From the UHGV virus genome UHGV-0168719: 19,923 bases of DNA, one strand, 5' to 3'. The notes beneath the pieces were generated by a model that saw only the letters and a list, made by a program, of their open reading frames with translations, searched no databases and was not told the DNA's origin. Position numbers and translations under genes: made by a program. Origin of the DNA: a virus. Below, piece after piece: positions 1-19,197 of the stretch (positions within the stretch are counted from its first letter, which is position 1; every line of letters begins with the position of its first letter).

Positions 1-104
1 AAAAAAATATTATATATAGGGAGATCAAATACAACGGTTTACTTGTTATGATGCAAACATTGGTTAGTTAGTGAGATACATCGCCATCAATTGGGTAACT
101 TTAC

Positions 105-320
105 CCGTGGAAAGTTAACGCTTTCTAACATTTACCCCGCGCAACGCCCCTGCCAGCGACAAGAGTCACAGGATCAGGCGGTATGGCGTATGGGTATTCG
201 AACCCTTTGGGCGACCAAGGGTTCGTGGAGCAGGGGGCTAGTGCTGTTCAATCTCATCCTTATGAGGGCGAACCATAGTGTTGGAGCAGACATATCGTTT
301 GCACACTATGGGCATAAGGA
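105..320 (+). ncRNA. Candidate structured non-coding leader, possibly a retron msr/msd-like ncRNA; boundaries approximate
   Basis: GC-rich island inside AT-rich DNA directly upstream of the HTH-RT operon. Hairpins seen: gaaag-ttaacg-ctttc (110-125); cgaaccctt / aagggttcg 9-bp stem (199-207 with 217-225) enclosing tgg-GCGA-cca (GNRA loop); ctcat-cctt-atgag (252-265); ccatagtgt / acactatgg 9-bp stem (273-281 with 302-310). Direct repeats tggagcag (226-233 and 283-290) and gggcga(a)cca. The overlapping 91..483 track ORF starts at TTG with no RBS. No a1/a2 inverted repeats or long msd stem found. Confidence 0.3.
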
Positions 321-327
321 GCAAATC

Positions 328-483
328 ATGAAGAATGATAAATTAACCAACGAACAGCAGGCGCAGAACAAGTCAAACCTGAAAAAGTGGGCTGGTTATG
401 TTTGGAAATTAATCAAATGGGGTATTAGACTGTTTGATTTAGCCACTCGAGCACTGGACTACTTTGAAGGGGGTGATGAGTAA
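328..483 (+). CDS. Small hypothetical protein (51 aa), first ORF of the RT operon
   Basis: ATG at 328 preceded by a consensus AAGGAG (316-321) with 6-nt spacer; product MKNDKLTNEQQAQNKSNLKKWAGYVWKLIKWGIRLFDLATRALDYFEGGDE has a polar N-terminus then a W/K-rich amphipathic segment. No family recognised. Confidence 0.45.
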   Translation: MKNDKLTNEQQAQNKSNLKKWAGYVWKLIKWGIRLFDLATRALDYFEGGDE

Positions 484-519
484 TGCGTCCTCCCTAGTTT
501 CAATAGCATGGAGTTGCCT

Positions 520-840
520 ATGTTACACAGAGCCCTTCGTTTAATAAGGCAATACCATAAAGAGTCATTGGTTGATTTATCAACATCTTTAGGTATTCCA
601 AAAGAAAAAATAGTAGAACTCGAAAGTGGGGTTTGGTCGCCTACAATTGATGTTTTACAGCGTTACGCCTCCCATTTCGATATGCCGGTATCTTCTTTAG
701 TATTTTTTTCAGAATCGTTAGGTACGCAGGGGCGTTTATCTAAGCGTTTCCGTTTAAATTTAGCTGGTAAAGTATTAGATGTTATTGAGTGGGCGAATAA
801 GAAAAATGAAAAGACGAATAAAACTCAAAATTTCCACTAA
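520..840 (+). CDS. XRE-family (Cro/C1-type) helix-turn-helix protein, about 106 aa
   Basis: LRLIRQYHKESLVDLSTSLGIPKEKIVELESGVWSPTIDVLQRYASHFDMPVSSL fits the XRE HTH pattern. GGAG (510-513) sits 6 nt before ATG 520; the track's ATG 508 has no RBS. Stop TAA 838-840. Confidence 0.75.
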   Translation: MLHRALRLIRQYHKESLVDLSTSLGIPKEKIVELESGVWSPTIDVLQRYASHFDMPVSSLVFFSESLGTQGRLSKRFRLNLAGKVLDVIEWANKKNEKTNKTQNFH

Positions 841-1756
841 AAATAAATCTTACGATATAATTGATTCGCCGTTTTATAAAATGAGAAGTAAAAGGAAATT
901 GGCTTCTTTATTGGGGGTTGATGTAGGGGATTTATCAACCTTAAAAAAAGATGAAGGCAATTATTCTATTTTTGAACAGTTATCTAAAAACGGAAAGCCA
1001 CGTAAGATACAAAAACCATTAGAAAAATTAGATGTGGTGCATACTCGTATTGCAAGTCTGCTATCGCGAATTACCTTGCCAGATTATCTACATTCTGGAA
1101 AGAAGGGATGTTCTAATGTTACTAATGCTAAAATCCACCTTAATAATGAAAGGTTGATGACAACCGACATCAGGGCTTTTTTTCCATCAACTACTAGAGA
1201 AATGATATTTTCATTCTTTTTTTCTGTTATGAAGATGTCATCTGATGTTGCGGATGTATTATCGTATATATGTACTTGCTATGGGCGTTTGCCTACAGGT
1301 AGCAGGATTAGTATGCCTCTTGCATATTTTGCAAATTCAAGAATGTTCGGAGAAATACACCAACTTTGTAATAAACTACACGTAAATATGTCTGTTTATG
1401 TTGATGATCTAACTTTTTCAGGACAAAACGTTAATAGACTATTTTGTTCAGTGATTCGCAAAATAATAAATAAGCATGGTCATGTGATGCATGCGGATAA
1501 AACAAAAATTTATAGTAGAGAAAAGCCTAAGTTGGTAACAGGTGTTATTGTTTTGGGCGGTTCTTTAAAAGTCAGGAATAAGCAGCATCTTTTAATGTCT
1601 CAAGAAATTGAATATTGGAAAATGATAAAGGATGCAGCGTGTGCAAGAGAAACTCATACTGCCAAAAAGTTATTTGGACGATTGCATTCTATGGGGGTAA
1701 TTGAACAACGTTATAGATCAAAGGTGCTTACATTAAAAGCAAGTACTGCACTTTAA
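806..1756 (+). CDS. Reverse transcriptase, retron-type (about 316 aa from ATG 806; alternative starts 779 or 881)
   Basis: RT motifs in the translation: F..K.G..R.I..P...L...H.RI (fingers), NAKIHLNNERLMTTDIRAFFPS, YVDD catalytic motif (nt 1397-1408), and the retron-characteristic VTG motif KPKLVTGVIVLGG (nt 1535-1543). Size fits retron RTs rather than the larger Abi-type RTs. Start 806 gives an N-terminal length like Ec86 and overlaps the HTH gene by 35 nt in another frame; 881 gives no overlap. Confidence 0.85.
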   Translation: MKRRIKLKISTKNKSYDIIDSPFYKMRSKRKLASLLGVDVGDLSTLKKDEGNYSIFEQLSKNGKPRKIQKPLEKLDVVHTRIASLLSRITLPDYLHSGKKGCSNVTNAKIHLNNERLMTTDIRAFFPSTTREMIFSFFFSVMKMSSDVADVLSYICTCYGRLPTGSRISMPLAYFANSRMFGEIHQLCNKLHVNMSVYVDDLTFSGQNVNRLFCSVIRKIINKHGHVMHADKTKIYSREKPKLVTGVIVLGGSLKVRNKQHLLMSQEIEYWKMIKDAACARETHTAKKLFGRLHSMGVIEQRYRSKVLTLKASTAL

Positions 1757-1807
1757 TACAGGTTCCTGTAAGTGATTATATTGTTCTTAAGATACTTACT
1801 GATGTTA

Positions 1808-1838
1808 TTTCCCCGTAGCCTTAATTTCTGCGGGGAAG
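1808..1838. terminator. Possible hairpin between the convergent RT and FRG genes
   Basis: tttccccg (1808-1815) pairs with cggggaag (1831-1838) across a 15-nt loop, inside the 108-bp convergent intergenic region; the loop is large and there is no clean U-tract. Confidence 0.25.
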
Positions 1839-1864
1839 TATGGAGATATTTTGGTTATGGAATG

Positions 1865-3229
1865 CTAATTTTTTAATGTGTATTTTTCTGTGATTAGTTT
1901 CATTGTTCTTTCCAATCCTAAATATACAGTGGCATCAGTAATATTGAGCACGGCAAGTTCTTTTAAAATTTTCTTTTTGTCTCTGATGTTTATTTTTTCT
2001 GTCTTAAAGTTGTATGGTGAATTATCTGCCTGATCGTTGGATATCTCAGGAAAAACGGCGTTATTACCGAATAATAAAAAGGCACCGGATTGAGATGATA
2101 TTCTTTCATTATTTATCCTGCTTTTTACAAAAATTATCTTTTCCAAATCATCTGGATTTATTATGCTTTGAAAATATGGTTTTTCATGCTTTATGGATTC
2201 TAAGAGTTTAAGGCAAGCATGAGAGTTGTTAAAATCATTATTTCTTTCTTCGAAAGAAAGCTTGTCTTTCATGTCTTTTGATAGCATGCATAAATTAGAT
2301 ATGCAACTGACAGTGTCGGAATCGAAAAATTTAATGTTCTCTCTGTGTGTTTTAAATATTATTACTTGACCATCGATATCGTTTTTGTCGGAATTTATAC
2401 TACTGCATGCAAAATAAAGTGCAATTAATGGATTTGATGTGATGTCAAGTAAGCGAGTAGGTATGCCATAATGTTGCATTCTTACAAGTTTATCAAGCAT
2501 TGATGTATCATCAATGAATTCTGAGGGTCTTGCGCTCAATGCTTCTTTAACAAGGTTGATTTCATTATGTAGAAATTTATAGTTCCCATTTTCATATTTT
2601 CTGAAAAGAGATGGTGCAAGTTCATAAGATGAATCTGAATGACCCCTGTAAAAAATCTCCTCATCCATATCTGCTGTTATATGGAGAACTTTTTCAATAA
2701 ATTCTTGTAAACTATTTACGGTTAATAATGTGCTATCTTCGTCTGGGAGAGGCGCTGGACTGCTATCCACTTGTGCATTTTGGTTAATACCAAATGTCTT
2801 AAGGATATCATCTATATTTTTGTCTTTTATGGCCCAGTGTGTTCTTTTAAGGCCATAAGTTCCGAGTTCTAAACTGCTTTCAACACTTTTGGCGTCTGAT
2901 ATTTTGATTTCATTGTGTGTATGGGTGATTGCAAATTGGAAGTTGATTTCTTTTCCCTTAATGTGAATATTTGAAATTCTTCCAATTCGTATGTCGACAT
3001 AATAAGGTTTTGCTCCCTCTATTTGATAAGCTTCACTCATGAATATTGTTGGGAGTTTTTCAAGATAAGATAGTACATTGCTGCTTAATGGGGATAGTTT
3101 TTTGCGAATACCATCGGAGGTGTTTTCAAACATTCGTGATAAAAGAAATGAGAATTCTCCATTATTTTGGCTGAATGGTTTCCAGTGGTCGTAGTGGTCG
3201 GGAAAACCACCCATAATTAAATTAATCAT
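1865..3229 (-). CDS. FRG-domain protein (454 aa) with an unassigned ~190-aa N-terminal region
   Basis: Central region carries the FRG-domain signature: EEIFYRGHSDSSYELAPSLFRK ... LVRMQHYGIPTRLLDITSNPLIALYFAC ... ERISSQSGAFLLFG (roughly nt 2070-2655). AT-rich gene convergent with the RT operon; ATG at 3229. Confidence 0.8.
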   Translation of the reverse strand: MINLIMGGFPDHYDHWKPFSQNNGEFSFLLSRMFENTSDGIRKKLSPLSSNVLSYLEKLPTIFMSEAYQIEGAKPYYVDIRIGRISNIHIKGKEINFQFAITHTHNEIKISDAKSVESSLELGTYGLKRTHWAIKDKNIDDILKTFGINQNAQVDSSPAPLPDEDSTLLTVNSLQEFIEKVLHITADMDEEIFYRGHSDSSYELAPSLFRKYENGNYKFLHNEINLVKEALSARPSEFIDDTSMLDKLVRMQHYGIPTRLLDITSNPLIALYFACSSINSDKNDIDGQVIIFKTHRENIKFFDSDTVSCISNLCMLSKDMKDKLSFEERNNDFNNSHACLKLLESIKHEKPYFQSIINPDDLEKIIFVKSRINNERISSQSGAFLLFGNNAVFPEISNDQADNSPYNFKTEKINIRDKKKILKELAVLNITDATVYLGLERTMKLITEKYTLKN

Positions 3230-3512
3230 AATTACCTGTTCATCTGATGTAGGTGTAGGAATGCTTGTTGTTTGTTATGGTAATGTTAACGCTTGTTGGT
3301 GGCAACTACTATTACTACTTGCTGTTAGAGCTAAGACATTTTTTGATTGCTTGTAATGATAGCGAGCCTTTAACTAACTGGGATTTTGAAAAAATAAATG
3401 AATTGTCAATTTCCTGAGATTTTTATTACTGCATTCATTAAGTGCATTTTTTTGCGTGTGTTAGTTGCCATGCTTTTCCATGTTTGTTACCAGTGTTGAT
3501 GCGGTTACTGTG

Positions 3513-3534
3513 TTTTAATGCAATTGCATTAAAA
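3513..3534. repeat. Perfect 22-bp palindrome ttttaatgcaa/ttgcattaaaa, 19 bp left of cos
   Basis: Exact dyad read directly from the sequence; function unknown (packaging-site element, protein-binding site or hairpin). Confidence 0.5.
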
Positions 3535-3741: not shown

Positions 3742-4776
3742 TCAGCCGTTGTCAGTGTCCAGTGAGTAGTTTTTAAAGCGGATGACCTCCTGGCCGAGCC
3801 AGCCGTTTATTTCCCGAATCCTGTCCTGTAACGGGATTAGCTCATTGCGGACAAAGACCTTTGCCACTTTCTCAATATCACCCAGTGACCCGACGTTCTC
3901 CGGCTTGCCACCCATCAACTGAAAGGGGATGCGGTGTGCGTCCAGCAGGTCAGCGGCGCTGGCTTTTTTGATATTAAAAAAATCGTCCTTCGTCGCCACT
4001 TCACTGAGGGGGATAATTTTAATGCCGTCGGCTTTCCCCTGCGGGGCATAGAGAAACAGGTTTTTAAAGTTGTTGCGGCCTTTCGACTTCACCATGTTTT
4101 CGCGAAGCATTTCGATATCGTTGCGATCCTGCACGGCATCGGTGACGTACATGATGTATCCGGCATGTGCGCCATTTTCGTAATACTTGCGGCGGAACAG
4201 CGTGGCCGACTCATTCAGCCAGGCAGAGTTAAGGGCGCTGAGATATTCCGGCAGGCCGTACAGCTCCTGATTAATATCAGGCTCCAGCAGGTGAAACACG
4301 GAGCCGGGCGCGAAGGCTGTCGGCTCGTTGAAGGACGGCACCCACCAGTAAACATCCTCCTCCACGCCACGACGGGTATATTTTGCCGGTGAGGTTTCCA
4401 GTCTGATGACCTTACCGGTGGTGCTGTAACGCTTTTCCAGAAACGCATTACCGAACACCAGAAAATCCAGCACAAAGCGGCTGAAATCCTGTTGTGAAAG
4501 CCACGGATGCGGGATAAATGTCGAGGCCAGAATATTACGTTTGACGTAAATCGGTGAGCTGTGATGCACGGCAGCACGCAGGCTTTTTGCCAGACCGGTA
4601 AAGCTGACCGGCGGCTCATACCATCTGCCGTTACTGATGCACTCGACGTAATCCAGAATGTCACGGCGGTCGAGTACCGGCACCGGCTCACCAAAGGTGA
4701 ATGCCTCCATTTTCGGGGCGCTGGCGGTCATTTTTTTTGCCGCAGGTTGCGGTGTTTTCCCTTTTTTCTTGCTCAT
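3742..4776 (-). CDS. Q: Portal protein
   Basis: 344-aa translation (MSKKKGKTPQPAAKKMTASAPKMEAFTFGEPVPVLDRRDILDYVECISNGRWYEPP...) matches the P2 Q protein as remembered; the start ATG overlaps the P stop as ATGA. Confidence 0.95.
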   Translation of the reverse strand: MSKKKGKTPQPAAKKMTASAPKMEAFTFGEPVPVLDRRDILDYVECISNGRWYEPPVSFTGLAKSLRAAVHHSSPIYVKRNILASTFIPHPWLSQQDFSRFVLDFLVFGNAFLEKRYSTTGKVIRLETSPAKYTRRGVEEDVYWWVPSFNEPTAFAPGSVFHLLEPDINQELYGLPEYLSALNSAWLNESATLFRRKYYENGAHAGYIMYVTDAVQDRNDIEMLRENMVKSKGRNNFKNLFLYAPQGKADGIKIIPLSEVATKDDFFNIKKASAADLLDAHRIPFQLMGGKPENVGSLGDIEKVAKVFVRNELIPLQDRIREINGWLGQEVIRFKNYSLDTDNG

Positions 4777-6548
4777 CAGTAAAACTCCAGAATGGTGGAT
4801 GTCAGCGGGGTGCTGATACCGGCGGTGAGTGGCTCATTTAACAGGGCGTGCATGGTCGCCCAGGCGAGGTCGGCGTGGCTGGCTTCCTCGCTGCGGCTGG
4901 CCTCATAGGTGGCGCTGCGTCCGCTGCTGGTCATGGTCTTGCGGATAGCCATAAACGAGCTGGTGATGTCGGTGGCGCTGACGTCATATTCCAGACAGCC
5001 ACGGCGGATAACGTCTTTTGCCTTGAGCACCATTGCGGTTTTCATTTCCGGTGTGTAGCGGATATCGCGCGCGGCGGGATAGAACGAGCGCACGAGCTGG
5101 AACACGCCGACACCGAGGCCGGTGGCATCAATACCGATGTATTCGACGTTGTATTTTTCGGTGAGTTTGCGGATGGATTCAGCCTGAGTGGCAAAGTCCA
5201 TGCCTTTCCACTGGTGACGCTCAAGTATTCTGAATTTGCCACCGGCCACCACCGGCGGTGCCAGCACCACGCATCCGGCACTGTCGCCACGGTGTGACGG
5301 GTCGTAACCAATCCAGACCGGGCGTGAGCCGAACGGATTGGCGGCAAACGGCGCATAGTCTTCCCATTCTTCCAGCGTGTCGACCATGCAGCGTTGCAAC
5401 TCCTCGAACGGGAACACCGACGCCTTGTCGTCAACAAATTCACACATGAACAGGTTTTTAAAATCGTCGGCGCTGTTTTCGCGTTTGAGTTGCTCAATGT
5501 CGAACAGCGTGCAGCCGCCTTTCAGGGCGTCCTCAATGGTGACAATCTGCCGCCACTGGCCGTCCGCACAGAGAAGCCCGCTGGCAAGGGCGTTATGACT
5601 GACGTCGATTTCCACACGTTCGGCGGCGCTGGCACGTCCCCGGTTGAACAGTTCACCTGACCAGAACGGGTAGGCGTCGTGCGCCAGCGTGGACGGGGTG
5701 GAGAAATAGGTCGAGCGCAGGTGACTCTGTGAGGCCATACCTGATGCCACCTTACGCAGTACCTGAAAATTCGGGATCCAGAAAATCTCGTCGACGTACA
5801 GGTCGCCGTTATGGCTCTGCGCGGTGTTGGAGTTGGTGCCGAGAAAAATCAGTTTTGAGCCGTTATTGCCCAGGACAATCGGGTCACCGGTCAGGTCAAC
5901 GTCAACCAGCCGGGCAAAGGCGATGATGTATTCGCGGAACACATACGCCTGCGTTTTACTGGCCGACAGAAAAATCTGGTTATGACCGGTTTTCAGGGCG
6001 CGCAGCAGCGCCTCGCGGGAAAAATAAAACGTTGCGCCAATCTGGCGGGATTTCAGGATATCGCGGATGCGGTGCTCAAGCCCGGCGCGATACCAGTGCA
6101 ACTGATAGTCGAAAGACTGCTCAAAGAAAATCTGCTCCAGCTTTTCGATGGCCTCGTCACTGAAAAAATTCTTTTTCGGTTTGCGACGCCCGCCTTTGTT
6201 GCGGTTAGCGACGTTCGGATTAAGGTCTGCCTCGTTGCCGGTCTGACTGTAGCGGTTTACCCGTGCCAGTCGTTCAATCTGGCGTCCGAGCAGGTCAATT
6301 TCCTTGAAGTCACCACCGGTTTTCTGCGGTTTGATAATGAGCTGGGTCAGTCGCGCTTCCAGACTCATTTCGACACGGCTGATGGGGGCAACGCTGTCCC
6401 AGCCGTCGCGCTGTTTCCAGCTCTGCACCGTCGGGCGTTTCATCTGCAACATGGCGGCAATCTGCGGCACGGAAAACCCCTGCCAGTACAGCAGCGCCGC
6501 CTGACGACGCGGGTCGTGTAAAAGAGTGGTGTCTGTGGTGATGGTCAT
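4776..6548 (-). CDS. P: Terminase large (ATPase) subunit, 590 aa
   Basis: Translation from MTITTDTTLLHDPRRQAALLYWQGFSVPQIAAMLQ matches P2 P; start set at the ATG at 6546-6548 rather than the longer track ORF start at 6578. Confidence 0.93.
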   Translation of the reverse strand: MTITTDTTLLHDPRRQAALLYWQGFSVPQIAAMLQMKRPTVQSWKQRDGWDSVAPISRVEMSLEARLTQLIIKPQKTGGDFKEIDLLGRQIERLARVNRYSQTGNEADLNPNVANRNKGGRRKPKKNFFSDEAIEKLEQIFFEQSFDYQLHWYRAGLEHRIRDILKSRQIGATFYFSREALLRALKTGHNQIFLSASKTQAYVFREYIIAFARLVDVDLTGDPIVLGNNGSKLIFLGTNSNTAQSHNGDLYVDEIFWIPNFQVLRKVASGMASQSHLRSTYFSTPSTLAHDAYPFWSGELFNRGRASAAERVEIDVSHNALASGLLCADGQWRQIVTIEDALKGGCTLFDIEQLKRENSADDFKNLFMCEFVDDKASVFPFEELQRCMVDTLEEWEDYAPFAANPFGSRPVWIGYDPSHRGDSAGCVVLAPPVVAGGKFRILERHQWKGMDFATQAESIRKLTEKYNVEYIGIDATGLGVGVFQLVRSFYPAARDIRYTPEMKTAMVLKAKDVIRRGCLEYDVSATDITSSFMAIRKTMTSSGRSATYEASRSEEASHADLAWATMHALLNEPLTAGISTPLTSTILEFY

Positions 6549-6721
6549 GAATACCTCGCCGTGATGAATACACGGCAAGGCTACTGAGTCGCGCCCTGCG
6601 ATTCGCTAAGGTGCTGTTGTGTCAGTGATAAGCCATCCGGGACTGATGGCGGAGGATGCGCATCGTCGGGAAACTGATGCCGACATGTGACTCCTCTAAT
6701 CACTATTCAGGACTCCTGACA
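6549..6721. promoter_or_regulatory. Divergent late-promoter region between P and O
   Basis: Positional: 173-bp intergenic region between divergent late operons, as in P2. No perfect TGT-N12-ACA dyad was found here, so precise elements are not assigned. Confidence 0.4.
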
Positions 6722-7576
6722 ATGGCAAAAAAAGTCTCAAAATTCTTTCGTATCGGCGTTGAGGGTGACACCTGTGACGGGCGTGTCATCAGTGCGCAGG
6801 ATATTCAGGAAATGGCCGAAACCTTTGACCCGCGTGTCTATGGTTGCCGTATTAACCTGGAACATCTGCGCGGCATCCTGCCTGACGGTATTTTTAAACG
6901 TTATGGTGATGTGGCCGAACTGAAGGCCGAAAAGATTGACGATGATTCGGCGCTGAAAGGCAAATGGGCGCTGTTTGCGAAAATCACCCCGACCGATGAC
7001 CTTATCGCGATGAACAAGGCCGCGCAGAAGGTCTATACCTCAATGGAAATTCAGCCGAACTTTGCCAACACCGGCAAATGTTATCTGGTGGGGCTGGCCG
7101 TCACCGATGACCCGGCAAGCCTCGGCACGGAATACCTGGAATTCTGCCGCACGGCAAAACACAACCCTCTGAACCGCTTCAAATTAAGCCCTGAAAACCT
7201 GATTTCAGTGGCAACGCCTGTTGAGCTGGAATTTGAAGACCTGCCTGAAACCGTGTTCACCGCCCTGACTGAAAAGGTGAAATCCATTTTTGGCCGCAAA
7301 CAGGCCAGCGATGACGCCCGTCTGAATGATGTGCATGAAGCGGTGACCGCTGTTGCTGAACATGTGCAGGAAAAACTGAGCGCCACTGAGCAGCGCCTCG
7401 CAGAGATGGAAACCGCCTTTTCCGCACTTAAGCAGGATGTAGCTGACAGGGCGGATGAAACCAGCCAGGCATTCACCCGCCTGAAAAACAGCCTCGACCA
7501 CACCGAAAGTCTGACCCAGCAGCGCCGCAGCAAGGCCACCGGCGGTGGCGGTGATGCCCTGATGACGAACTGCTGA
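6722..7576 (+). CDS. O: Capsid scaffolding protein, 284 aa
   Basis: Translation from MAKKVSKFFRIGVEGDTCDGRVISAQDIQEMAETFDPRVYG matches P2 O; length exactly 284 aa from ATG 6722 (the track ORF starts upstream at 6656). Confidence 0.92.
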   Translation: MAKKVSKFFRIGVEGDTCDGRVISAQDIQEMAETFDPRVYGCRINLEHLRGILPDGIFKRYGDVAELKAEKIDDDSALKGKWALFAKITPTDDLIAMNKAAQKVYTSMEIQPNFANTGKCYLVGLAVTDDPASLGTEYLEFCRTAKHNPLNRFKLSPENLISVATPVELEFEDLPETVFTALTEKVKSIFGRKQASDDARLNDVHEAVTAVAEHVQEKLSATEQRLAEMETAFSALKQDVADRADETSQAFTRLKNSLDHTESLTQQRRSKATGGGGDALMTNC

Positions 7577-7634
7577 CCGTCGTCAGTCAGTCCGGGAAAA
7601 CCTTCACGATTAACCCTTAATTTCAGGAAAAACT

Positions 7635-8708
7635 ATGCGCCAGGAAACCCGCTTTAAATTTAATGCCTACCTGTCCCGTGTTGCCGAACTGAACGGCATC
7701 GACGCCGGTGATGTGTCGAAAAAATTCACCGTTGAACCGTCGGTCACCCAGACCCTGATGAACACCATGCAGGAGTCCTCTGACTTTCTGACCCGCATCA
7801 ACATTGTGCCGGTCAGCGAAATGAAAGGGGAAAAAATTGGTATCGGTGTCACCGGCTCCATCGCCAGCACCACCGACACCGCCGGTGGCACCGAGCGTCA
7901 GCCGAAGGACTTCTCGAAGCTGGCGTCAAACAAGTATGAATGCGACCAGATTAACTTCGATTTTTATATCCGCTACAAAACGCTTGACCTGTGGGCGCGT
8001 TATCAGGATTTCCAGCTCCGTGTCCGTAACGCCATTATCAAACGCCAGTCCCTTGATTTAATCATGGCCGGTTTTAACGGCGTGAGGCGTGCCGAAACCT
8101 CTGACCGCAGCAGTAACCAGATGCTGCAGGATGTGGCGGTCGGCTGGCTGCAGAAATACCGCAATGAAGCCCCGGCGCGCGTGATGAGCAAGGTTACTGA
8201 CGAGGAAGGTCACACGACCTCTGAGGTCATCCGCGTGGGTAAGGGCGGTGATTATGCCAGCCTCGATGCACTGGTGATGGATGCGACCAACAACCTGATT
8301 GAGCCGTGGTATCAGGAAGACCCTGACCTTGTGGTGATTGTGGGGCGTCAGCTACTGGCGGACAAGTATTTCCCCATCGTCAACAAGGAGCAGGACAACA
8401 GCGAAATGCTGGCCGCTGACGTCATCATCAGCCAGAAACGCATCGGTAACCTGCCGGCGGTACGCGTCCCGTACTTCCCGGCGGATGCGATGCTCATCAC
8501 GAAGCTGGAAAACCTGTCCATCTACTACATGGATGACAGCCATCGCCGCGTGATTGTGGAAAACCCGAAACTCGACCGCGTGGAGAACTACGAGTCAATG
8601 AACATTGATTACGTAGTGGAAGACTACGCCGCCGGTTGTCTGGTGGAAAAAATTAAGGTCGGTGACTTCTCCACACCGGCTAAAGTGACCGCAGAGCCGG
8701 GAGCGTAA
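7635..8708 (+). CDS. N: Major capsid protein, 357 aa
   Basis: MRQETRFKFNAYLSRVAELNGIDAGDVSKKF... matches P2 N in sequence and length. Confidence 0.95.
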   Translation: MRQETRFKFNAYLSRVAELNGIDAGDVSKKFTVEPSVTQTLMNTMQESSDFLTRINIVPVSEMKGEKIGIGVTGSIASTTDTAGGTERQPKDFSKLASNKYECDQINFDFYIRYKTLDLWARYQDFQLRVRNAIIKRQSLDLIMAGFNGVRRAETSDRSSNQMLQDVAVGWLQKYRNEAPARVMSKVTDEEGHTTSEVIRVGKGGDYASLDALVMDATNNLIEPWYQEDPDLVVIVGRQLLADKYFPIVNKEQDNSEMLAADVIISQKRIGNLPAVRVPYFPADAMLITKLENLSIYYMDDSHRRVIVENPKLDRVENYESMNIDYVVEDYAAGCLVEKIKVGDFSTPAKVTAEPGA

Positions 8709-8711
8709 CCG

Positions 8712-9455
8712 ATGACGAGTCCCGCACAGCGCCACATGATGCGGGTCTCGGCAGCGATGACCGCGCAGCGGGACGCCGCCCCGCTGCGACATGCAACTGT
8801 CTATGAGCAGATGCTGGTCAAGCTGGCCGCAGACCAGCGCACACTGAAAGCGATTTATTCAAAAGAGCTGAAGGCCGCGAAAAAACGCGAACTGCTGCCG
8901 TTCTGGTTGCCGTGGGTGAACGGCGTGCTGGAGCAGGGCAAAGGCGCACAGGATGACATTCTGATGACGGTCATGCTGTGGCGTCTGGATACCGGCGATA
9001 TTGCTGGTGCGCTGGAGATTGCCCGTTATGCCCTGAAGTACGGTCTGACCATGCCGGGTAAACACCGCCGCACCCCGCCGTACATGTTCACCGAGGAGGT
9101 GGCGCTCGCGGCCATGCGCGCTCACGCTGCCGGTGAATCCGTGGATATCCGCCTGCTGACGGAGACCCTTGAACTGACCGCCACTGCTGACATGCCTGAT
9201 GAAGTGCGCGCAAAGCTGCACAAAATCACCGGTCTGTTTCTGCGTGACGGTGGTGATGCCGCCGGTGCGCTGGCTCACCTGCAACGTGCGACACAGCTCG
9301 ACTGTCAGGCAGGCGTCAAAAAAGAGATTGAACGACTGGAGCGGGAGCTGAAACCGAAGCCGGAGCCGCAGCCCAAAGCAGCCACCCGCGCCCCGCGTAA
9401 GACCCGGAGTGCGACACCGGCAAAACGTGGACGCCCGAAAAAGAAAGCCAGTTAA
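8712..9455 (+). CDS. M: Terminase small (endonuclease) subunit, 247 aa
   Basis: Position and length match P2 M; basic C-terminal tail (KPKPEPQPKAATRAPRKTRSATPAKRGRPKKKAS). Confidence 0.9.
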   Translation: MTSPAQRHMMRVSAAMTAQRDAAPLRHATVYEQMLVKLAADQRTLKAIYSKELKAAKKRELLPFWLPWVNGVLEQGKGAQDDILMTVMLWRLDTGDIAGALEIARYALKYGLTMPGKHRRTPPYMFTEEVALAAMRAHAAGESVDIRLLTETLELTATADMPDEVRAKLHKITGLFLRDGGDAAGALAHLQRATQLDCQAGVKKEIERLERELKPKPEPQPKAATRAPRKTRSATPAKRGRPKKKAS

Positions 9456-9554
9456 CAACCGAATGCGCCCCGCGCCAGGGCGGCACGCCGGTCAGTGAGG
9501 GTGAATCACCTGACACTGTACCGGCGTCCACCGCCCGACTTTTCAGAGGTAGTC

Positions 9555-10064
9555 ATGATGACGCTGATTATTCCGCGAAAGGAGGCTCCCGTATCCTGTG
9601 AGGGTACGGTGGTCATCCCGCAACCGGCAGGCGACGAGCCGGTGATTAAAAACACGTTCTTTTTTCCCGATATCGACCCGAAGCGCGTCCGGGAACGTAT
9701 GCGCCTTGAGCAGACCGTCGCCCCGGCCCGTCTGCGTGAGGCCATCAAGTCAGGCATGGCGGAGACGAATGCGGAGCTGTACGAGTACCGCGAACAGAAA
9801 ATTGCTGCCGGTTTTACGCGTCTGGCGGACGTCCCGGCGGACGACATCGACGGTGAAAGCATCAAAGTTTTTTACTACGAGCGCGCCGTGTGTGCGATGG
9901 CGACCGCATCGCTTTATGAGCGTTATCGCGGCGTGGATGCCAGTGCGAAAGGCGACAAGAAGGCCGACAGCATTGACAGCACCATTGATGAGCTGTGGCG
10001 GGATATGCGCTGGGCAGTGGCGCGCATCCAGGACAAGCCGCGCTGTATCGTGAGTCAAATCTGA
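9555..10064 (+). CDS. L: Head completion/stabilisation protein, 169 aa
   Basis: MMTLIIPRKEAPVS... matches P2 L; GAGG RBS 5 nt before ATG 9555; the track ORF begins at an upstream GTG. Confidence 0.9.
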   Translation: MMTLIIPRKEAPVSCEGTVVIPQPAGDEPVIKNTFFFPDIDPKRVRERMRLEQTVAPARLREAIKSGMAETNAELYEYREQKIAAGFTRLADVPADDIDGESIKVFYYERAVCAMATASLYERYRGVDASAKGDKKADSIDSTIDELWRDMRWAVARIQDKPRCIVSQI

Positions 10065-10267
10065 TGAAGACCTTTGCGCTACAGGGCGACACGCTCGACG
10101 CCATCTGTGTCCGGTATTACGGGCGCACTGAGGGCGTGGTTGAGACCGTGCTCGCCGCAAATCCGGGAATGGCTGAACTGGGTGCGGTGCTGCCGCACGG
10201 CACCGCCGTCGAACTGCCCGACGTTCAGACCGCGCCCGTGGCTGAAACTGTCAATCTGTGGGAGTAA
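10064..10267 (+). CDS. X: Tail protein X, 67 aa
   Basis: MKTFALQGDTLDAICVRYYGRTEGVVETVLAANPG... matches P2 X; ATG overlaps the L stop as ATGA. Confidence 0.88.
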   Translation: MKTFALQGDTLDAICVRYYGRTEGVVETVLAANPGMAELGAVLPHGTAVELPDVQTAPVAETVNLWE

Positions 10268-10270
10268 CGC

Positions 10271-10552
10271 ATGACAGCAGAAGAAAAAAGCGTCCTGTCG
10301 CTTTTCATGATTGGGGTGCTGATTGTTGTCGGCAAGGTGCTTGCCGGTGGTGAACCCATCACCCCGCGTCTGTTTATCGGGCGCATGTTGCTCGGTGGTT
10401 TTGTCTCGATGGTTGCGGGTGTTGTTCTGGTGCAGTTTCCTGACCTGTCACTGCCTGCGGTGTGCGGCATCGGCTCCATGCTGGGTATCGCCGGTTATCA
10501 GGTGATTGAGATTGCCATTCAGCGCCGCTTTAAGGGCAGGGGGAAACCGTAA
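10271..10552 (+). CDS. Y: Holin, 93 aa
   Basis: Position and length match P2 Y; hydrophobic segments (LSLFMIGVLIVVGKVLAGG; LGGFVSMVAGVVLV). Confidence 0.85.
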   Translation: MTAEEKSVLSLFMIGVLIVVGKVLAGGEPITPRLFIGRMLLGGFVSMVAGVVLVQFPDLSLPAVCGIGSMLGIAGYQVIEIAIQRRFKGRGKP

Positions 10553-11049
10553 TGCCGGTAATTAACACGCATCAGAATATCGCCGCCTTTCTCGACATGC
10601 TGGCCGTGTCCGAAGGGACGGCAAATCATCCGCTGACGAAAAACCGGGGCTATGACGTGATAGTCACCGGACTGGACGGGAAGCCGGAAATCTTCACCGA
10701 CTACAGCGACCACCCGTTCGCGCATGGCCGACCGGCGAAGGTGTTTAACCGTCGCGGTGAAAAATCCACGGCCTCCGGTCGCTATCAGCAGCTTTACCTG
10801 TTCTGGCCGCATTACCGCAAACAGCTTGCCCTGCCGGATTTCAGTCCGTTGTCACAGGACAGGCTCGCCATTCAGTTGATCCGCGAACGCGGTGCACTGG
10901 ATGACATCCGGGCGGGACGCATTGAGCGCGCCATTTCACGCTGTCGCAATATCTGGGCGTCCCTGCCGGGTGCCGGTTATGGTCAGCGTGAGCATTCACT
11001 GGAAAAACTGGTCACCGTCTGGCGTACCGCTGGCGGCGTACCGGCTTAA
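10552..11049 (+). CDS. K: Endolysin, 165 aa
   Basis: Position and length match P2 K; TAATG overlap with Y. Confidence 0.9.
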   Translation: MPVINTHQNIAAFLDMLAVSEGTANHPLTKNRGYDVIVTGLDGKPEIFTDYSDHPFAHGRPAKVFNRRGEKSTASGRYQQLYLFWPHYRKQLALPDFSPLSQDRLAIQLIRERGALDDIRAGRIERAISRCRNIWASLPGAGYGQREHSLEKLVTVWRTAGGVPA

Positions 11050-11063
11050 ACGGAGTAAACACC

Positions 11064-11486
11064 ATGAAGAAATTATCCCTTTCACTGATGCTGAACGTGT
11101 CGCTGGCGCTGATGCTGGCACTGTCCCTGATTTACCCGCAGAGCGTGGCCGTCAGTTTTGTCGCCACCTGGGCGATTCTGGCGACGGTTATCTGTGTGGT
11201 TGCCGGTGGTGTCGGCGTGTATGCCACTGAGTATGTACTGGAGCGCTACGGGCGGGAGCTGCCGCCGGAATCGCTGGCCGTGAAGATTGTCACGTCGCTG
11301 TTTTTGCAGCCGGTGCCGTGGCGCAGACGGGCGGCGGCTCTGGTGGTGGTGGCGACGTTTATCGCGCTGGTCGCTGCCGGGTGGATTTTTACCGCGCTGA
11401 TTTATCTTGTGGCGTCGGTGTTCTTCCGGCTGATACGTAAAGCCTGCCGTCAGCGTTTTGAGGGGCGGGAACCATGTCAAAGCTGA
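11064..11486 (+). CDS. lysA: Lysis regulatory membrane protein LysA
   Basis: 140-aa hydrophobic protein in the P2 lysA position; GGAG RBS before ATG 11064. Confidence 0.8.
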   Translation: MKKLSLSLMLNVSLALMLALSLIYPQSVAVSFVATWAILATVICVVAGGVGVYATEYVLERYGRELPPESLAVKIVTSLFLQPVPWRRRAAALVVVATFIALVAAGWIFTALIYLVASVFFRLIRKACRQRFEGREPCQS

Positions 11487-13132: not shown

Positions 13133-13876
13133 TTATCTGGTCAAATAAGTGAGGGTACTCTCTTCAGGTATTAGTTGGATATCTCCACCCCAGACGTCCA
13201 TTATGTTTTTTCTTGCTTCCCAATATTCTGGATATGTGTTTTGATGAGCATTGTAGATACAAGCTAAAAGCCAGTGCTGGTATTTAAGAGTTGTGTATTG
13301 GTATTCCTCTATTATCGGCAAGATGAATAAATTTTTTTGTTCTGTTGACTTCAGGTATTCTTTTGATTTACCAGAAAGCCGGTCATTCTCCAGTATGGTT
13401 TCAATCTTAAATGCAAATCCGTGTATGTTTATTTTTTTCTGGAGGTGCATAAATGATGATATTAATGGGGAGATCATTTTTTGATGGGTTAGGATGTTTC
13501 TTAAATCTTCCATTAATTTTATGATTGGATTTTTTAAAAATTCTTCATTGATGATTTCTCTGGATTTATTGGTAATATCATCAATATTTAATACATTGAT
13601 TTTATGTAGATTACGCGTTGAATCTCTAAATGATAATGCTGAGGAGATATAGTTGAGAAAATGTCTTGATATATTTATGTGCTGTTTTTTTAATTCATTT
13701 CTATTAAGTGAGTAGTGGAATACAATTTCAGGAGAGTTGAATTTGCTTAATTCACTTTGAATCACCTCATAATTGGCAATGTGTATATGTCCAAGTAAAT
13801 TGGTGTCGGAAATTTTTAAATATTCTTTATGGGCGATGGTGTCTTTTTGTTTTTCCCAGATTTGATATTTATCCAT
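13133..13876 (-). CDS. Hypothetical protein (247 aa) in an AT-rich insertion between S and V
   Basis: Minus-strand ORF with AAGGAG 7 nt upstream of the ATG at 13876 (track ORF extends to 13975 with no RBS). No family recognised; contains an Rx4H motif (LRNILTHQK). P2 has a nonessential orf30 in this position; relatedness was not assessed. Confidence 0.7.
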   Translation of the reverse strand: MDKYQIWEKQKDTIAHKEYLKISDTNLLGHIHIANYEVIQSELSKFNSPEIVFHYSLNRNELKKQHINISRHFLNYISSALSFRDSTRNLHKINVLNIDDITNKSREIINEEFLKNPIIKLMEDLRNILTHQKMISPLISSFMHLQKKINIHGFAFKIETILENDRLSGKSKEYLKSTEQKNLFILPIIEEYQYTTLKYQHWLLACIYNAHQNTYPEYWEARKNIMDVWGGDIQLIPEESTLTYLTR

Positions 13877-13895
13877 GCTTCGGCTCCTTCTTGGT

Positions 13896-13913
13896 TGTGC
13901 CGAAAATGATACA
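13896..13913 (+). promoter_or_regulatory. TGT-N12-ACA dyad (Ogr-type late activator site) of the V-operon promoter
   Basis: Exact TGTgccgaaaatgatACA centred about 55 bp upstream of the V ATG (13960); the P2 late-promoter element is TGT-N12-ACA as I recall it. Confidence 0.5.
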
Positions 13914-13959
13914 ACGGGTTGCAATAGTTTTTCGAGCATATGTTCCCCATTATTGTCAT

Positions 13960-14595
13960 ATGAGCACATTATCAAGTATTCAGGAACTCGCGCGCGTACT
14001 GCGCAACATGATTCGCACCGGCATTATCGTCGAAACCGACCTTAACGCCGGTCGCTGCCGTGTGCAGACCGGCGGCATGTGTACCGACTGGCTTCAGTGG
14101 CTGACCCATCGCGCCGGACGTTCGCGCACATGGTGGGCACCTTCCGTGGGGGAGCAGGTGCTGATTCTGGCCGTGGGCGGTGAACTCGACACGGCGTTCG
14201 TTCTGCCGGGGATTTATTCCGGTGATAACCCCGCGCCGTCTGCGTCGGAGGATGCCCTGCATATCCGTTTCCCTGACGGGGCGGTGATTGAGTATGAACC
14301 CGAAACCAGTGCACTCACGGCAAGCGGAATTAAAACGGCCAGCGTGATGGCTTCTGATTCTGTTACTGCCACGGTGCCGGTGGTCACGGTGAAAGCATCA
14401 ACCCGCGTCACCCTGGACACACCGGAAGTGGTCTGCACCAACAAACTGACTACCGGCACGCTGGAAGTGCAGAAGGGCGGGACGATGCGCGGCAACATCG
14501 CGCATACCGGCGGTGAACTCTCATCAAACGGTAAGGTACTGCATACCCATAAACACCCCGGCGACAGCGGCGGCACAACAGGGGGACCTCTATGA
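13960..14595 (+). CDS. V: Baseplate spike/assembly protein V, 211 aa
   Basis: MSTLSSIQELARVLRNMIRTGIIVETDLNAGRCRVQTGGMCTDWLQW... matches P2 V; start at ATG 13960 (track ORF begins at an upstream TTG). Confidence 0.95.
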   Translation: MSTLSSIQELARVLRNMIRTGIIVETDLNAGRCRVQTGGMCTDWLQWLTHRAGRSRTWWAPSVGEQVLILAVGGELDTAFVLPGIYSGDNPAPSASEDALHIRFPDGAVIEYEPETSALTASGIKTASVMASDSVTATVPVVTVKASTRVTLDTPEVVCTNKLTTGTLEVQKGGTMRGNIAHTGGELSSNGKVLHTHKHPGDSGGTTGGPL

Positions 14596-15852: not shown

Positions 15853-16456
15853 TTCGCGCCTGCTGCCAACCGGCTCATCGCCGCTTGAAGTTGCCGCCGC
15901 AAAAGCCTGTGCGGAAATTGAAAAAACGCCGGTCAGGATTCGTGAACTGTGGAACCCGGATACCTGTCCGGCAAATCTGCTGCCGTGGCTGGCGTGGTCA
16001 TTTTCGGTTGACCGCTGGGATGATAAGTGGCCGGAAGCGACAAAACGCGCTGTTATCCGCGATGCGTATTTCATTCACTGCCATAAGGGCACTATAGGCG
16101 CAATCCGGCGTGTGGTGGAGCCGCTCGGCTATCTGATTGAGGTGAGGGAGTGGTGGCAACTCAACGAGGAGCCGGGGACGTTCCGCATCGTTGTTGGTGT
16201 GCTTGAGCAGGGTATTACCGAGGAAATGTATCAGGAGCTGGAGCGCCTCGTTGCTGATGCAAAACCGGCAAGCCGCCATCTGACGGGACTGGCTATCAGC
16301 TTAAGTACAACCGGCAACATTTTTGCCGGTGCGGGATGCTATCACGGTGACGCCCTGACGGTTTATCCCTACACCCCGGAGGCCATTATTGTCGGAGGGG
16401 ATTATTTCCCGGCCTCGGCCATTCATTTAATTGATAACCTGAGAGTAAACGCATGA
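15845..16456 (+). CDS. I: Baseplate protein I
   Basis: [30 protein letters not shown]... matches the P2 I N-terminus; 203 aa here, a little longer than I recall for P2 I. Confidence 0.88.
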
Positions 16457-17613
16457 CAGTGAAATACTACGCCATTCTGACTAATCAGGGCGCAGCACGC
16501 CTGGCTAACGCGACGATGCTCGGCAGTAAGCTGAATCTGACGCAAATGGCCGTTGGTGATGCGAATGGTGTCTTGCCGACACCAGACCCGGCACAGACAA
16601 AACTGATTAATCAGAAACGCATTGCACCGCTGAATCTTCTGAGTGTTGACCCGAACAACCAGAGCCAGATTATTGCGGAGCAAATCATCCCTGAGAACGA
16701 GGGCGGATTCTGGATCCGTGAGATTGGGCTTTATGATGATGAAGGCGTACTCATTGCGGTGGCGAACTGCCCGGAAACGTACAAACCGCAGTTGCAGGAA
16801 GGAAGTGGTCGTACCCAGACTATCCGCATGATTCTGGTTGTCACGAATACCGAAGCTATTACGCTGAAAATCGACCCGTCGGTGGTATTGGCGACCCGTA
16901 AATACGTGGATGATGAAGTCCTGGAATTAAGGCTGTATGTGGATGACCAGATGAGAAAACACATTGCCGCACAGGACCCTCATACCCAGTATGCACAGAA
17001 ACATAATCCGACATTTACCGGAGAACCAAAAGCGCCGACGCCTGCCGCAGGAAATAACACCACGCGGATTGCGACCACTGCGTTTGTACAGGCCGCTATT
17101 ACCGCTCTGATTAACGGTGCGCCAGCCACACTGGACACACTGAAAGAAATTGCCGCGGCCATTAACAATGACCCGAAATTCAGCACCACCATTAACAATG
17201 CGCTGTCAGGTAAGCAGCCACTGGATGAGACGCTGACTCATTTGAGTGGAAAGGATGTTGCCGGTCTTCTCGCATACCTTGGTTTGGGAGAAGCGGCGAA
17301 AAGGAATGTGGGGACTGGGGCGAATCAGATACCTGATATGTCATCATATGCATCAGGTTCAGGCTGGCGAAAAATGCCAGATGGTTCAATTGAACAGTGG
17401 GGAGGAATTCGTTTTCCTGGTGAACACGAGCCTGTATCCGCCAATGTTTCATTCCCAATTCCATTTACACAGACACCGGACATTATAATTGTGTTCGATG
17501 GTGGTTTCGGGGGCGGGAATATGTGGGGGGCGACCAACTGGAGCACTACCGGCTTCATAGCTCACTGCAATTATGGTCTTGAAGGTGGTGCGTTTTTCGC
17601 TAAGGGCTGGTAA
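16453..17613 (+). CDS. H: Tail fibre protein H in its current orientation: constant N-terminal part plus short variable C-terminus
   Basis: N-terminus resembles P2 H (MAVGD..G.LP.PD, GGFW.RE.GLYDD.G.LIAVAN, GSGR.QT.RM...). The reading frame runs through the left crossover site (17267-17292, encoding LAYLGLGE) into a 107-aa C-terminus unrelated to the P2 H tail. Confidence 0.9.
17267..17292. other. Left crossover site of the invertible segment (26 bp, gix/cix-like)
   Basis: ttctcgcataccttggtttgggagaa matches the reverse complement of the right site at 21 of 26 positions, including 14 consecutive identical bases (ttggtttgggagaa). Confidence 0.7.
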
Positions 17614-18056
17614 TGATGAAATATCTGTACGTAAACAACCTGGCATATCCTTACGAACTTCAGTCTCTTTATGTTGAAAAAGGTGAATGGCCTGAAGAAA
17701 AAGGTGTTGATATAGACGAAGTAATTTTCAGGGAATATTTCTATGATACACCACCAGAAGGAAAATACAGATGTGTCGGAGAGGATGGACTGCCTGCATG
17801 GGCAGATATTCCTCCACCAACACGTGAAGAACAAATTGCATCAGCCGAAACTAAAAAGCAGCAATTGATTAACCAGGCCAACGAATACATCAACAGTAAA
17901 CAATGGCCAGGTAAAGCATCAATTGGTCGTCTGAAAGGTGAGGAACTGGCGCAATATAATTTGTGGCTGGATTATCTGGACGCACTGGAGCTGGTCGATA
18001 CTTCCAGTGCACCAGATATTGAATGGCCTACTCCTCCGGCAGTTCAGGCCAGATGA
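17613..18056 (+). CDS. Tail fibre assembly protein for the current orientation, 147 aa
   Basis: Position directly after H with TAATG coupling and AAGGG RBS; C-terminus LVDTSSAPDIEWPTPP parallels the C-terminus of the opposing tfa (DTSTAPDVIWPELPEE). Confidence 0.85.
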   Translation: MMKYLYVNNLAYPYELQSLYVEKGEWPEEKGVDIDEVIFREYFYDTPPEGKYRCVGEDGLPAWADIPPPTREEQIASAETKKQQLINQANEYINSKQWPGKASIGRLKGEELAQYNLWLDYLDALELVDTSSAPDIEWPTPPAVQAR

Positions 18057-18630
18057 CATCCGGCGCGGTGCTGGTATCTGTTGCCGTCACCGCGTCAATG
18101 TAATCCAGCACGGCGTTAAGTCGGGTTGTTTCTGCCTGCGTCAACTTCCGTCCGGCCTGTAATTTCAGCTGAATCAGACTAATGGAAGCCATTGCTGCAT
18201 TAATCAGTGACTGGCGCTGTGCTTCTGCCGCGTCTAGTGCGGCGCTATGCTGTGCCTCGGTATCCGTCACCCATTTCTCACCATCCCATTTATCGTATGG
18301 CGTTAATGGGGCGATAGTGGTTGTATTTTCAGGGTAATCACCCGGAACTGTGATTTCTTTGGTATCTCCCGTTTCGGTACTATAGACAACTTCACCGCGA
18401 TGGTCTGGCACATATTCCCATGAATTTAAATCTACAGAGCGACAGATTGCATAACCAGCTTTATGTGTACCTGGTGCATCCAGACAGGAACATGCCGGGA
18501 TACCGACGCCGACAGCGAGATATTCAGTTGATGTAGAAATATATTCCCGCGTTTCGCCATCATAGTTATGTACGATGATTTCCCCATCATTTAAAGCGTA
18601 ACCGTCTTTTCCCAAAATAGCCTGTTCCAT
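18028..18630 (-). CDS. Alternative tail fibre assembly protein for the inverted orientation, 200 aa
   Basis: Minus-strand ORF directly downstream of the alternative H cassette; C-terminus resembles the other tfa; its 3' end overlaps the plus-strand tfa by 29 bp. Confidence 0.85.
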   Translation of the reverse strand: MEQAILGKDGYALNDGEIIVHNYDGETREYISTSTEYLAVGVGIPACSCLDAPGTHKAGYAICRSVDLNSWEYVPDHRGEVVYSTETGDTKEITVPGDYPENTTTIAPLTPYDKWDGEKWVTDTEAQHSAALDAAEAQRQSLINAAMASISLIQLKLQAGRKLTQAETTRLNAVLDYIDAVTATDTSTAPDVIWPELPEE

Positions 18631-19142
18631 TTATGCAGCCCTCACAATGTAGTTAAATGCAATGTTTCGCGGGCTACCATCACCGGCGCCGGAACTGACA
18701 TGATTGGTTCTATCCATTCGTTTACTGTCATTTGTTGTTCCACTCCCATCCTTCCACGAATACAATATCCCGCCATCGCCAATGCTCAACTGCACCGCAA
18801 ATACGGATGATGTACCTAATTCACCAACATCTCTAGCCATGAGTGGGTTCCCTGTCCATCCATGCATTTCATGGTTATGTTCAAGGATAGATGCTGCCTG
18901 ACTTGAAAGCAGCAGTCTCGCGGAATCAACACCTCGCCCATCATCCCACCCGCGAATAAACTCACCGCGCAAATCCGGTAATTTTAACTTTGGGTAAGCC
19001 TTTGCCAGTTTTGGGTACTCTTCGGCAGAAAAAGGTGCACCGTTGCATTTCAGCCAGCCTGTTGGTGGTGTGGCTGAAGGCCACGGAACAGGCACACCAA
19101 CGGGTAACGCTGAGCCTTCTCCCAAACCAACGTTTATGAAAA
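18631..19142 (-). CDS. Alternative tail-fibre C-terminal cassette (H'), promoterless, expressed only after inversion
   Basis: Translation from the crossover site (GLGEGSALPVGVPVPWPSATPPTGW ... NIAFNYIVRAA) resembles the P2 H C-terminus; in frame with the GLGE codons of the site. The track ORF runs to 19170 but that extension lies outside the segment. Confidence 0.8.
19117..19142. other. Right crossover site of the invertible segment (26 bp)
   Basis: ttctcccaaaccaacgtttatgaaaa, inverted relative to the left site, about 50 bp upstream of the invertase gene. Confidence 0.7.
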
Positions 19143-19197
19143 TGCAGAGATAACGGGCAACTGGCATCATCTCCGGTTTTTATTCAGGGGGATGCTC

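Follow-up and report, generated by a model that had tools for sequence, protein, structure and literature searches.

Phage P2 carries the exclusion genes old and tin, whose presumed role is to keep competing phages out of the lysogen; Old is an ATPase-Toprim nuclease. The interval between gpA and gpQ in which they lie, close to cos, is a hotspot of anti-phage systems, several of which have been validated and which often number more than one per interval (Rousset et al. 2022, PMC9122126). In this work we analyse the virus genome UHGV-0168719, a stretch of 19,923 nucleotides (nt) that we call the window, and in particular its FRG-domain gene at positions 1865-3229 on the minus strand. This gene occupies the same cos-proximal site as old and tin and may have the same presumed role, but it has no sequence or domain relationship to them. 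FRG domains are common in defence islands and prophage hotspots, yet they are experimentally untouched. The protein described here is a direct sequence member, with no family-level difference, of three entries that are names without a function: the PADLOC candidate PDC-S15, the Pfam family FRG (PF08867) and PHROG 4962. The N-terminal domain of the protein is annotated in none of these, and the best PDC-S15 profiles begin at about residue 168.

Parts of the design are found in other described systems. TIR and SIR2 defence proteins and the RES-domain ADP-ribosyltransferase (ART) toxins, which act by NAD+-depleting abortive infection, have a sensor-plus-effector logic like the one we propose, and the N-terminal domain (N-domain) of our protein is elsewhere mostly fused to TIR. 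Type IV restriction enzymes, i.e. the nuclease fusions of EVE, YTH and ASCH domains, McrB with its N-terminal domain, VcaM4I and PD-T4-3, use PUA-like readers. Here, however, the N-domain has no detectable sequence relationship to the EVE, YTH and ASCH profiles, its output is FRG (TIR, HEPN or kinase in relatives) and no recognised DNA endonuclease, and the binding of a modified base is putative. Finally, type VI retrons such as Retron-Vpa2, Retron-Eco12 and Retron-Sen3 are prophage-borne defence cargo too, and one of them is the immediate neighbour of the FRG gene in the same hotspot. They differ in having a defined operon, which is fully present at 60-1756 without FRG, and FRG fails the co-occurrence test with it.

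The reading that we prefer, and to which we give a probability of roughly 55%, is that the FRG gene is independent cargo of the prophage, a single gene that most likely encodes an anti-phage protein of the abortive-infection type with sensor and effector in one chain. Its parts are as follows.

1865-3229, minus strand: coding sequence of the FRG protein, 454 amino acids (aa), with the stop codon at 1865-1867 and the ATG at 3227-3229, from the list of open reading frames (ORFs) and the translation
2789-3229, minus strand: N-domain, aa 1-147, predicted PUA-like (EVE/YTH/ASCH-type) fold, putative sensor
2726-2788, minus strand: inter-domain linker, aa 148-168, proline-rich and variable, gappy in the alignment, pLDDT about 61-71, no secondary structure predicted
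1868-2725, minus strand: FRG-type effector module, aa 169-454
2387-2659, minus strand: Pfam FRG core, aa 191-281
3230-3517, minus strand: AT-rich 5' non-coding region of the FRG cassette, absent from retron-variant prophages, in which homology resumes at 3518
1757-3517, no strand assigned: swappable cassette of the FRG gene and its flanks inside the P2 gpA-gpQ hotspot, delimited by breaks in blastn homology

An ORF of 1365 nt in DNA of 33% GC, with homology as wide as this, far exceeds chance. The start site agrees with the homologues, which open MFNLIMGG. The FRG signature reported by the first-pass annotation of this DNA, which was made from the letters alone, is confirmed by the Pfam match at aa 191-281, which has E=2.4e-21, scores 76.9 bits where the cut-off is 25 and spans profile positions 2-92 of 94, and the motifs that it quoted lie at 193-197 (FYRGH), 252-262 (QHYGIPTRLLD) and 383-388 (AFLLFG). 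Fourteen PDC-S15 models match the protein, the best with E=7.3e-98 over aa 168-452, and phrog_4962, whose function is unnamed, matches it over its full length (E=1.4e-200). The annotation had also left about 190 N-terminal residues unassigned. This is true for Pfam, but PDC-S15 carries the FRG-type module to aa 168-452 and leaves aa 1-167. The protein is 100% identical to one of Peduovirus P2_2H1, and there are 3502 homologues at E<=1e-5, the full-length ones sharing 41-67% identity across the Proteobacteria; the family is spread through the chromosomes of many Proteobacteria, beyond phages. The sequence is therefore already known, the candidate is already catalogued (PDC-S15, PHROG 4962) and the hotspot is known. 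What the present analysis adds is an identity for the N-terminus, which belongs to a large family, so far without a name, of apparently PUA-like front modules that TIR, HEPN and kinase effectors have in common.

When 64 full-length homologues (43-67% identity) from Enterobacterales, Aeromonas, Rhizobiales and others are aligned, two conserved blocks stand out, with a variable, proline-rich linker between them. The AlphaFold2 model built on this alignment (pLDDT 83, pTM 0.80) has the same layout: aa 1-147 fold into a compact domain, 148-168 are a linker of low confidence, and 169-454 make up a larger alpha/beta module. The N-domain carries a signature of three parts, sR-x-lE-x-T (R32, E35, T37), lPtlF-x-x-E (P60, E66) and RTHWAvKD (R129, H131, W132, K135). 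When its model was compared with solved structures, the following matches were obtained, each given with its type and match score; the full-length model returned the same top matches.

THYN1, bound to 5-methylcytosine DNA: EVE, 7.1
Mmi1: YTH, 7.1
2ar1: EVE, 7.1
Rpa0253: EVE, 6.8
PH1033: EVE, 6.7
YTHDC2: YTH, 6.3
VcaM4I: modification-dependent nuclease, 6.1
Zymomonas ASCH: ASCH, 5.6
Lon N-domain: protein-binding, 5.0
McrB N-terminal domains: modified-DNA readers, 4.7-4.8
PD-T4-3: nuclease specific for 5-hydroxymethylcytosine, 4.7

These superpositions cover about 105-115 of 150 residues at about 3 A, with a sequence identity of only 5-12%. The best PDB match of the N-domain in Foldseek is a YTH domain (E=0.079). 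Searches by sequence were silent: 28 members of the N-domain family gave no hit to EVE (PF01878), YTH (PF04146), ASCH (PF04266) or any other Pfam family at E<=10, the N-domain had no Pfam hit when the whole protein was searched at E<=0.1 and no NCBIfam hit, PHROGs listed the family's own entry alone, and a profile search of the PDB came back empty at E<=10. Given the silent profiles and the 5-12% identity, we assign a fold class and not membership of EVE, YTH or ASCH. That aa 1-147 form a PUA-like barrel is, judging by the predicted structure, highly likely.

The N-domain is not confined to FRG proteins. Among 1.84 billion representatives, a profile of it detected 841 proteins (representative clusters) with E<=1e-3, of which 176 reach E<=1e-10. 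We counted the Pfam domains that accompany it among 125 of the top 148 hits, namely those of 150 aa or more, with the following numbers of proteins.

CAP12/Pycsar-type TIR: 23
FRG: 17
Abi_C (HEPN): 6
TIR_2: 6
TIR: 4
protein kinase: 4
SEFIR: 2
PNP_UDP phosphorylase: 1
Schlafen AlbA_2: 1
DncV-like nucleotidyltransferase: 1
EAD2: 1
AbiJ_NTD3: 1
FGE-sulfatase: 1

The commonest fusion is that to TIR, with 35 Pfam matches to TIR-type domains, SEFIR included, and these TIR versions are the PADLOC candidate PDC-S35. A search with one TIR member by tblastn leads back to the N-terminus of the 454-aa protein (29.6% identity, E=5e-10). Some of the kinase versions, four proteins that join the N-domain to a kinase, match the PD-T4-6 profile, a match that may rest on the kinase domain alone. 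In most proteins the N-domain begins at residue 1, and the C-terminal tails group by length around the size of a TIR, FRG or kinase module. In multi-domain proteins it stands N-terminal of the effector, usually directly, e.g. nucleotidyltransferase, N-domain and FRG; AbiJ_NTD3, N-domain and TIR; EAD2, N-domain, kinase and FGE; or N-domain and kinase. R32, E35, T37, P60, E66, R129, H131 and W132 are kept in 96-98% of members in all architectures. As read from the alignment, the conserved polar and aromatic residues (R32, E35, T37, E66, R129, H131 and W132) would suit a ligand pocket better than a scaffold. A front module that is conserved, combined with back modules of the suicide type that can be exchanged, looks like the pattern of the sensor or regulatory domains of abortive-infection proteins. 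Neither Pfam nor the searchable literature holds a description of the N-domain family, which may be named elsewhere, and for PDC-S15, PDC-S35, FRG plus EVE, and PUA-like plus TIR there are no functional studies in the searchable literature.

One metagenomic representative of 760 aa (P0187) unites a DncV-like nucleotidyltransferase (52-136), the N-domain (313-444) and FRG (501-590) in one polypeptide. This architecture hints that the N-domain could, at least there, bind a nucleotide signal.

In the FRG module, the residues that are invariant in the 64 homologues are R195-G196-H197; Q252-H253, G255 and P257-T258-R259-L260-L261-D262; N266-P267; and N374, R376, S379-Q380, G382 and F384. The claim that Frg is an ART reportedly goes back to Burroughs et al. 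2015. According to the Aravind group, Frg belongs together with RES to the ART superfamily and is probably an NADase effector (PMC9503650). Solved relatives of the module were found neither by a PDB sequence profile search (0 hits at E<=10) nor by Foldseek (nothing at E<=1e-3). Foldseek does return the RES toxin NatT over 261 columns, a weak match (E=0.87), and the weak matches of the predicted structure read as faint echoes of NAD+-binding and ART-like proteins, which are compatible with the ART assignment and do not confirm it. By inspection, the order of the invariant residues is also compatible with an ART core of the R-S-(Q/E) type, with R195 closing strand 190-197, T264-S265-N266 following strand 260-264 and S379-Q380 preceding strand 383-387 of the model. 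That FRG is an NADase or ART is a tentative prediction, and we would put it a little below even odds.

The FRG gene is convergent to the reverse transcriptase (RT) gene of its neighbour, as the first-pass annotation had it, with a gap of 108 bp between the two. The annotation had offered the FRG gene as either a stand-alone defence gene or the effector partner of the RT module. We found that this module, at 60-1756, has all the parts of a type VI retron, an effector included.

About 60-330, plus strand: structured RNA, extending into the small-protein (SP) ORF, fold z-score -7.0, no Rfam match
328-483, plus strand: SP, small-protein toxin ORF, 51 aa, phrog_15287
508-840, plus strand: HTH_VI, the helix-turn-helix (HTH) gene
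779-1756, plus strand: RT_VI, the RT gene

The RT gene matches PADLOC RT_VI (1.1e-105), the HTH gene upstream of it matches HTH_VI (7e-30), and the SP ORF matches phrog_15287 (3e-39) and is also annotated by RefSeq in related prophages. The region of the RNA and SP is 94% conserved among retron variants that are only 78-84% identical overall. A listed ORF of 130 aa with a TTG start (91-483) is probably spurious save for its last 51 codons. Type VI operons run structured RNA-SP-HTH-RT and defend when cloned alone (Retron-Vpa2 and Retron-Eco12, bioRxiv 10.1101/2025.10.22.683967; Retron-Sen3, bioRxiv 10.64898/2026.04.27.721009), and in Retron-Vpa2 and Retron-Sen3 the SP has been shown to be the toxin (in the same two preprints).

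The distribution of the two blocks separates them. The FRG gene, the retron and the junction between RT and FRG are each present at >=99% identity in exactly 60 of 5426 complete E. coli genomes, which means one near-clonal cassette and not a repeated, independent association. Retron variants of 60-90% nt identity occur in another 40 E. coli genomes. All four variant loci that we examined lie in the same slot and continue, in place of FRG, with an unrelated ORF of 145 aa (minus strand) or of 266 aa. In blastn comparisons the homology of the window to the prophages with related retrons ends at the RT stop codon (1756) and is back at 3516-3519 with 93-96% identity, so 1757-3517 is a discrete, replaceable cassette.

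Looking outwards from FRG gives the same picture. Among 80 loci from 80 species, tblastn found RT, HTH or SP within 8 kb of FRG in none, and when the flanking ORFs within 5 kb were clustered, no family recurred in more than six of the 80. The homologues thus have varied and unrelated neighbours. Full-length homologues lie in the lambdoid phages Tritos, between the replication genes and Q and beside hokD, and PhiR11_1, after the side tail fibre, both without RT. A homologue of 48% identity (P0049) sits in the P2 gpA-gpQ slot itself, beside two unrelated ORFs and an ASCH gene and without RT, and one of 58% identity in Klebsiella P2-like prophages (P0007) occupies another hotspot, that from gpU to the tail fibre, again without RT. 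In strain ECONIH5 a homologue (P0029) is part of an integrase/transposase island that has no RT, while a retron variant lies elsewhere in the chromosome. The FRG protein is therefore a single-gene unit, and the single-gene status of PDC-S15 is borne out by the neighbourhood analysis. Of the two options offered by the annotation, the stand-alone gene is strongly supported by these varied contexts and by the separate cassette. The effector partnership fails on three counts: the retron is complete with its own toxin, its variants (78-84% identity) carry other genes in the same slot, and FRG homologues occur without RT. We are confident that FRG is independent of the retron.

In the other arrangement of the P2 gpA-gpQ slot (L014-L016, about 8770-11070), the homologue of 48% identity is accompanied by unclassifiable ORFs of 198 and 243 aa and by an ASCH/DUF3850 protein. 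ASCH is itself PUA-like, and its presence beside FRG may be a coincidence or a functional theme. In Klebsiella (L009-L012, 5432-6829) the FRG homologue lies directly downstream of an ORF of 439-465 aa without Pfam or PADLOC match. Neither PADLOC nor Pfam gave hits for the products encoded in place of FRG or beside it in related hotspots (145, 266, 198, 243 and 465 aa).

Under the reading of independent, single-chain cargo, a defence role for the gene is a prediction that we consider probable. We propose that the prophage carries the protein to exclude competing phages. The PUA-like N-domain would bind an infection-specific ligand, most plausibly a nucleic acid or nucleotide feature of the phage, e.g. 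a modified base, because these are the usual clients of the PUA-like fold. That the putative ligand is a nucleic acid or modified base seems to us, all the same, somewhat less probable than the NADase or ART chemistry. Binding would relieve the inhibition of the FRG module, or assemble it, through the flexible linker. The FRG module would be the toxic or enzymatic output that damages cell or phage, most likely by NAD+ consumption or ADP-ribosylation, because the only existing prediction for FRG, in the literature, is the ART superfamily. The type VI retron in the same P2 gpA-gpQ hotspot would be a second, unrelated and self-sufficient system.

Several points weigh against this reading. PDC-S15 has the status of a candidate only, and no functional or experimental study of any FRG protein, PDC-S15 included, turned up in the searchable literature. 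To this extent the first-pass annotation was right to say that the domain has no established molecular function, although it missed the ART/NADase prediction (PMC9503650). That assignment in turn finds no convincing match among solved ARTs and no PDB sequence hit at E<=10. The effector domains that replace FRG behind the N-domain are chemically diverse, so the logic of the swap leaves the activity of FRG unfixed. Finally, some members of the FRG family may have partners. In one enterobacterial sub-lineage (about 56% identity; L008 at 7184-9383, L017 and three other loci) a gene of 267 aa in the same orientation ends 14 bp upstream of FRG. It has a faint TPR hit, and conserved ORFs of 146-148 aa and 268 aa follow at four to five of the loci.

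A bolder form of the proposal would make the N-domain an undescribed, widespread PUA-like sensor that reads a phage-specific feature, such as a hypermodified base, and switches on suicide effectors (FRG, TIR, HEPN, kinase and nucleosidase) and not a nuclease. FRG would then be a new NAD+-directed enzyme and the P2 gene a case of modification-triggered abortive infection. We regard this full combination as unlikely, if worth keeping in view.

Among the alternatives, the one that survives best is that the gene is a prophage moron outside defence, serving lysogenic conversion, acting as an addiction-type toxin, or working in counter-defence by removing or reading the signalling nucleotides of the host. 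This is improbable. The family is a PADLOC candidate derived from defence islands, its members turn up in several prophage hotspots of different kinds and in mobile islands, and its wide distribution in the chromosomes of Proteobacteria shows that phages are not its sole carriers. The N-domain, moreover, occurs in fusions with hallmark effectors of immunity (TIR, HEPN Abi_C, SEFIR, Schlafen, EAD2 and CD-NTase).

Slightly less probable still is a modification-dependent restriction enzyme of type IV character, in which the PUA-like domain reads modified phage DNA and FRG is an unrecognised nuclease that cuts it directly, with no suicide of the host. The FRG module matches no nuclease family in the Pfam, PADLOC, NCBIfam and PDB searches, and no canonical PD-(D/E)xK, HNH or GIY-YIG motif is evident to inspection in its invariant columns. 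The modules that replace it behind the N-domain are mostly TIR, HEPN and kinase, i.e. host-directed or abortive effectors and not DNA endonucleases, and the literature has Frg in the ART superfamily (PMC9503650).

We reject, as very improbable, a retron that senses infection and whose multicopy single-stranded DNA (msDNA) or RNA activates FRG as its effector or accessory partner, perhaps through the nucleic-acid-reader-like N-domain. In favour of this idea, the RT and FRG genes are adjacent and convergent, phage P2_2H1 and the 60 E. coli genomes carry both blocks, inherited together at >=99% identity, Rousset et al. 2022 (PMC9122126) list 'hypothetical + FRG + RVT_1' as a single arrangement (Table S5A), the fold of the N-domain is one used for reading nucleic acids, and the msDNA of type VI retrons increases upon infection according to the literature. 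Against it, the co-inheritance is that of one near-clonal cassette, same-slot retron variants lack FRG, all 80 species-level FRG loci and the four phage or prophage contexts are without RT, type VI retrons have their own toxin and function when cloned alone, and convergent genes allow no co-transcription, with the recombination boundary lying exactly between RT and FRG.

With the idea of a retron partner removed, the P2 copy offers a clean test of a single gene: a defined cassette of 1.76 kb, a natural phage that carries it (P2_2H1), and prophages for comparison that differ only in the cassette. The PUA-like, reader-type identity proposed for the N-terminus would tie PDC-S15, PDC-S35 and further architectures into one sensor family. 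If the sensor does read modified phage nucleic acid, modification-dependent immunity would be widened from DNA cleavage to abortive responses of the NAD+ type. If it does not, the gene is one more catalogued candidate in a known hotspot. Its value is that of a clean and cheap experimental test case more than of a proven new mechanism.

The window itself is a P2-like prophage. Its portal and terminase genes are followed by capsid, lysis, tail and tail-fibre genes of about 57% GC.

3742-4776, minus strand: portal gene
4776-6578, minus strand: terminase gene

Positions 1-3517 form a low-GC island (33-38% GC). The first 3527 positions match the right end of the phage Peduovirus P2_2H1 (LR595870) at 100% identity; in this phage FRG is the last gene before cos. 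Its virion DNA ends at about window position 3548, so the region is cos-proximal and lies between gpA and gpQ. The first-pass annotation spoke of a known anti-phage slot, and this holds: in a P2-like prophage, a gene between the cos side and the gpA side lies in the gpA-gpQ hotspot (PMC9122126).

A promoter scan of the 5' non-coding region gave a sigma-70-like match, TTGCCA-17-TACCAT at 3305-3277, which is a match to the consensus only, in a region whose total of hits is not above the shuffled expectation. Nothing canonical was returned by a terminator scan between the convergent RT and FRG genes. By eye, a hairpin of 8 bp can be seen at 1811-1835 (CCCCGTAG / CTGCGGGG, with one G-U pair) in the 108-bp gap, with a T tract on neither strand. 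At gathering thresholds, Rfam has no hit anywhere in the window.

Among the structural genes of the tail region there is another low-GC island (about 34% GC), which contains an orphan ORF of 280 aa (13133-13975, minus strand) without Pfam or PADLOC match; it may be another moron or defence slot. Towards the end of the window, a serine invertase of the Cin/Gin type (19192-19791, Resolvase and HTH_7) adjoins an oppositely oriented C-terminal fragment of a tail fibre (18631-19170, Collar). This fragment and the tail-fibre assembly gene at 18028-18630 duplicate a forward-strand pair at 16453-18056, and the stretch 18028-19791 looks like an invertible host-range switch.

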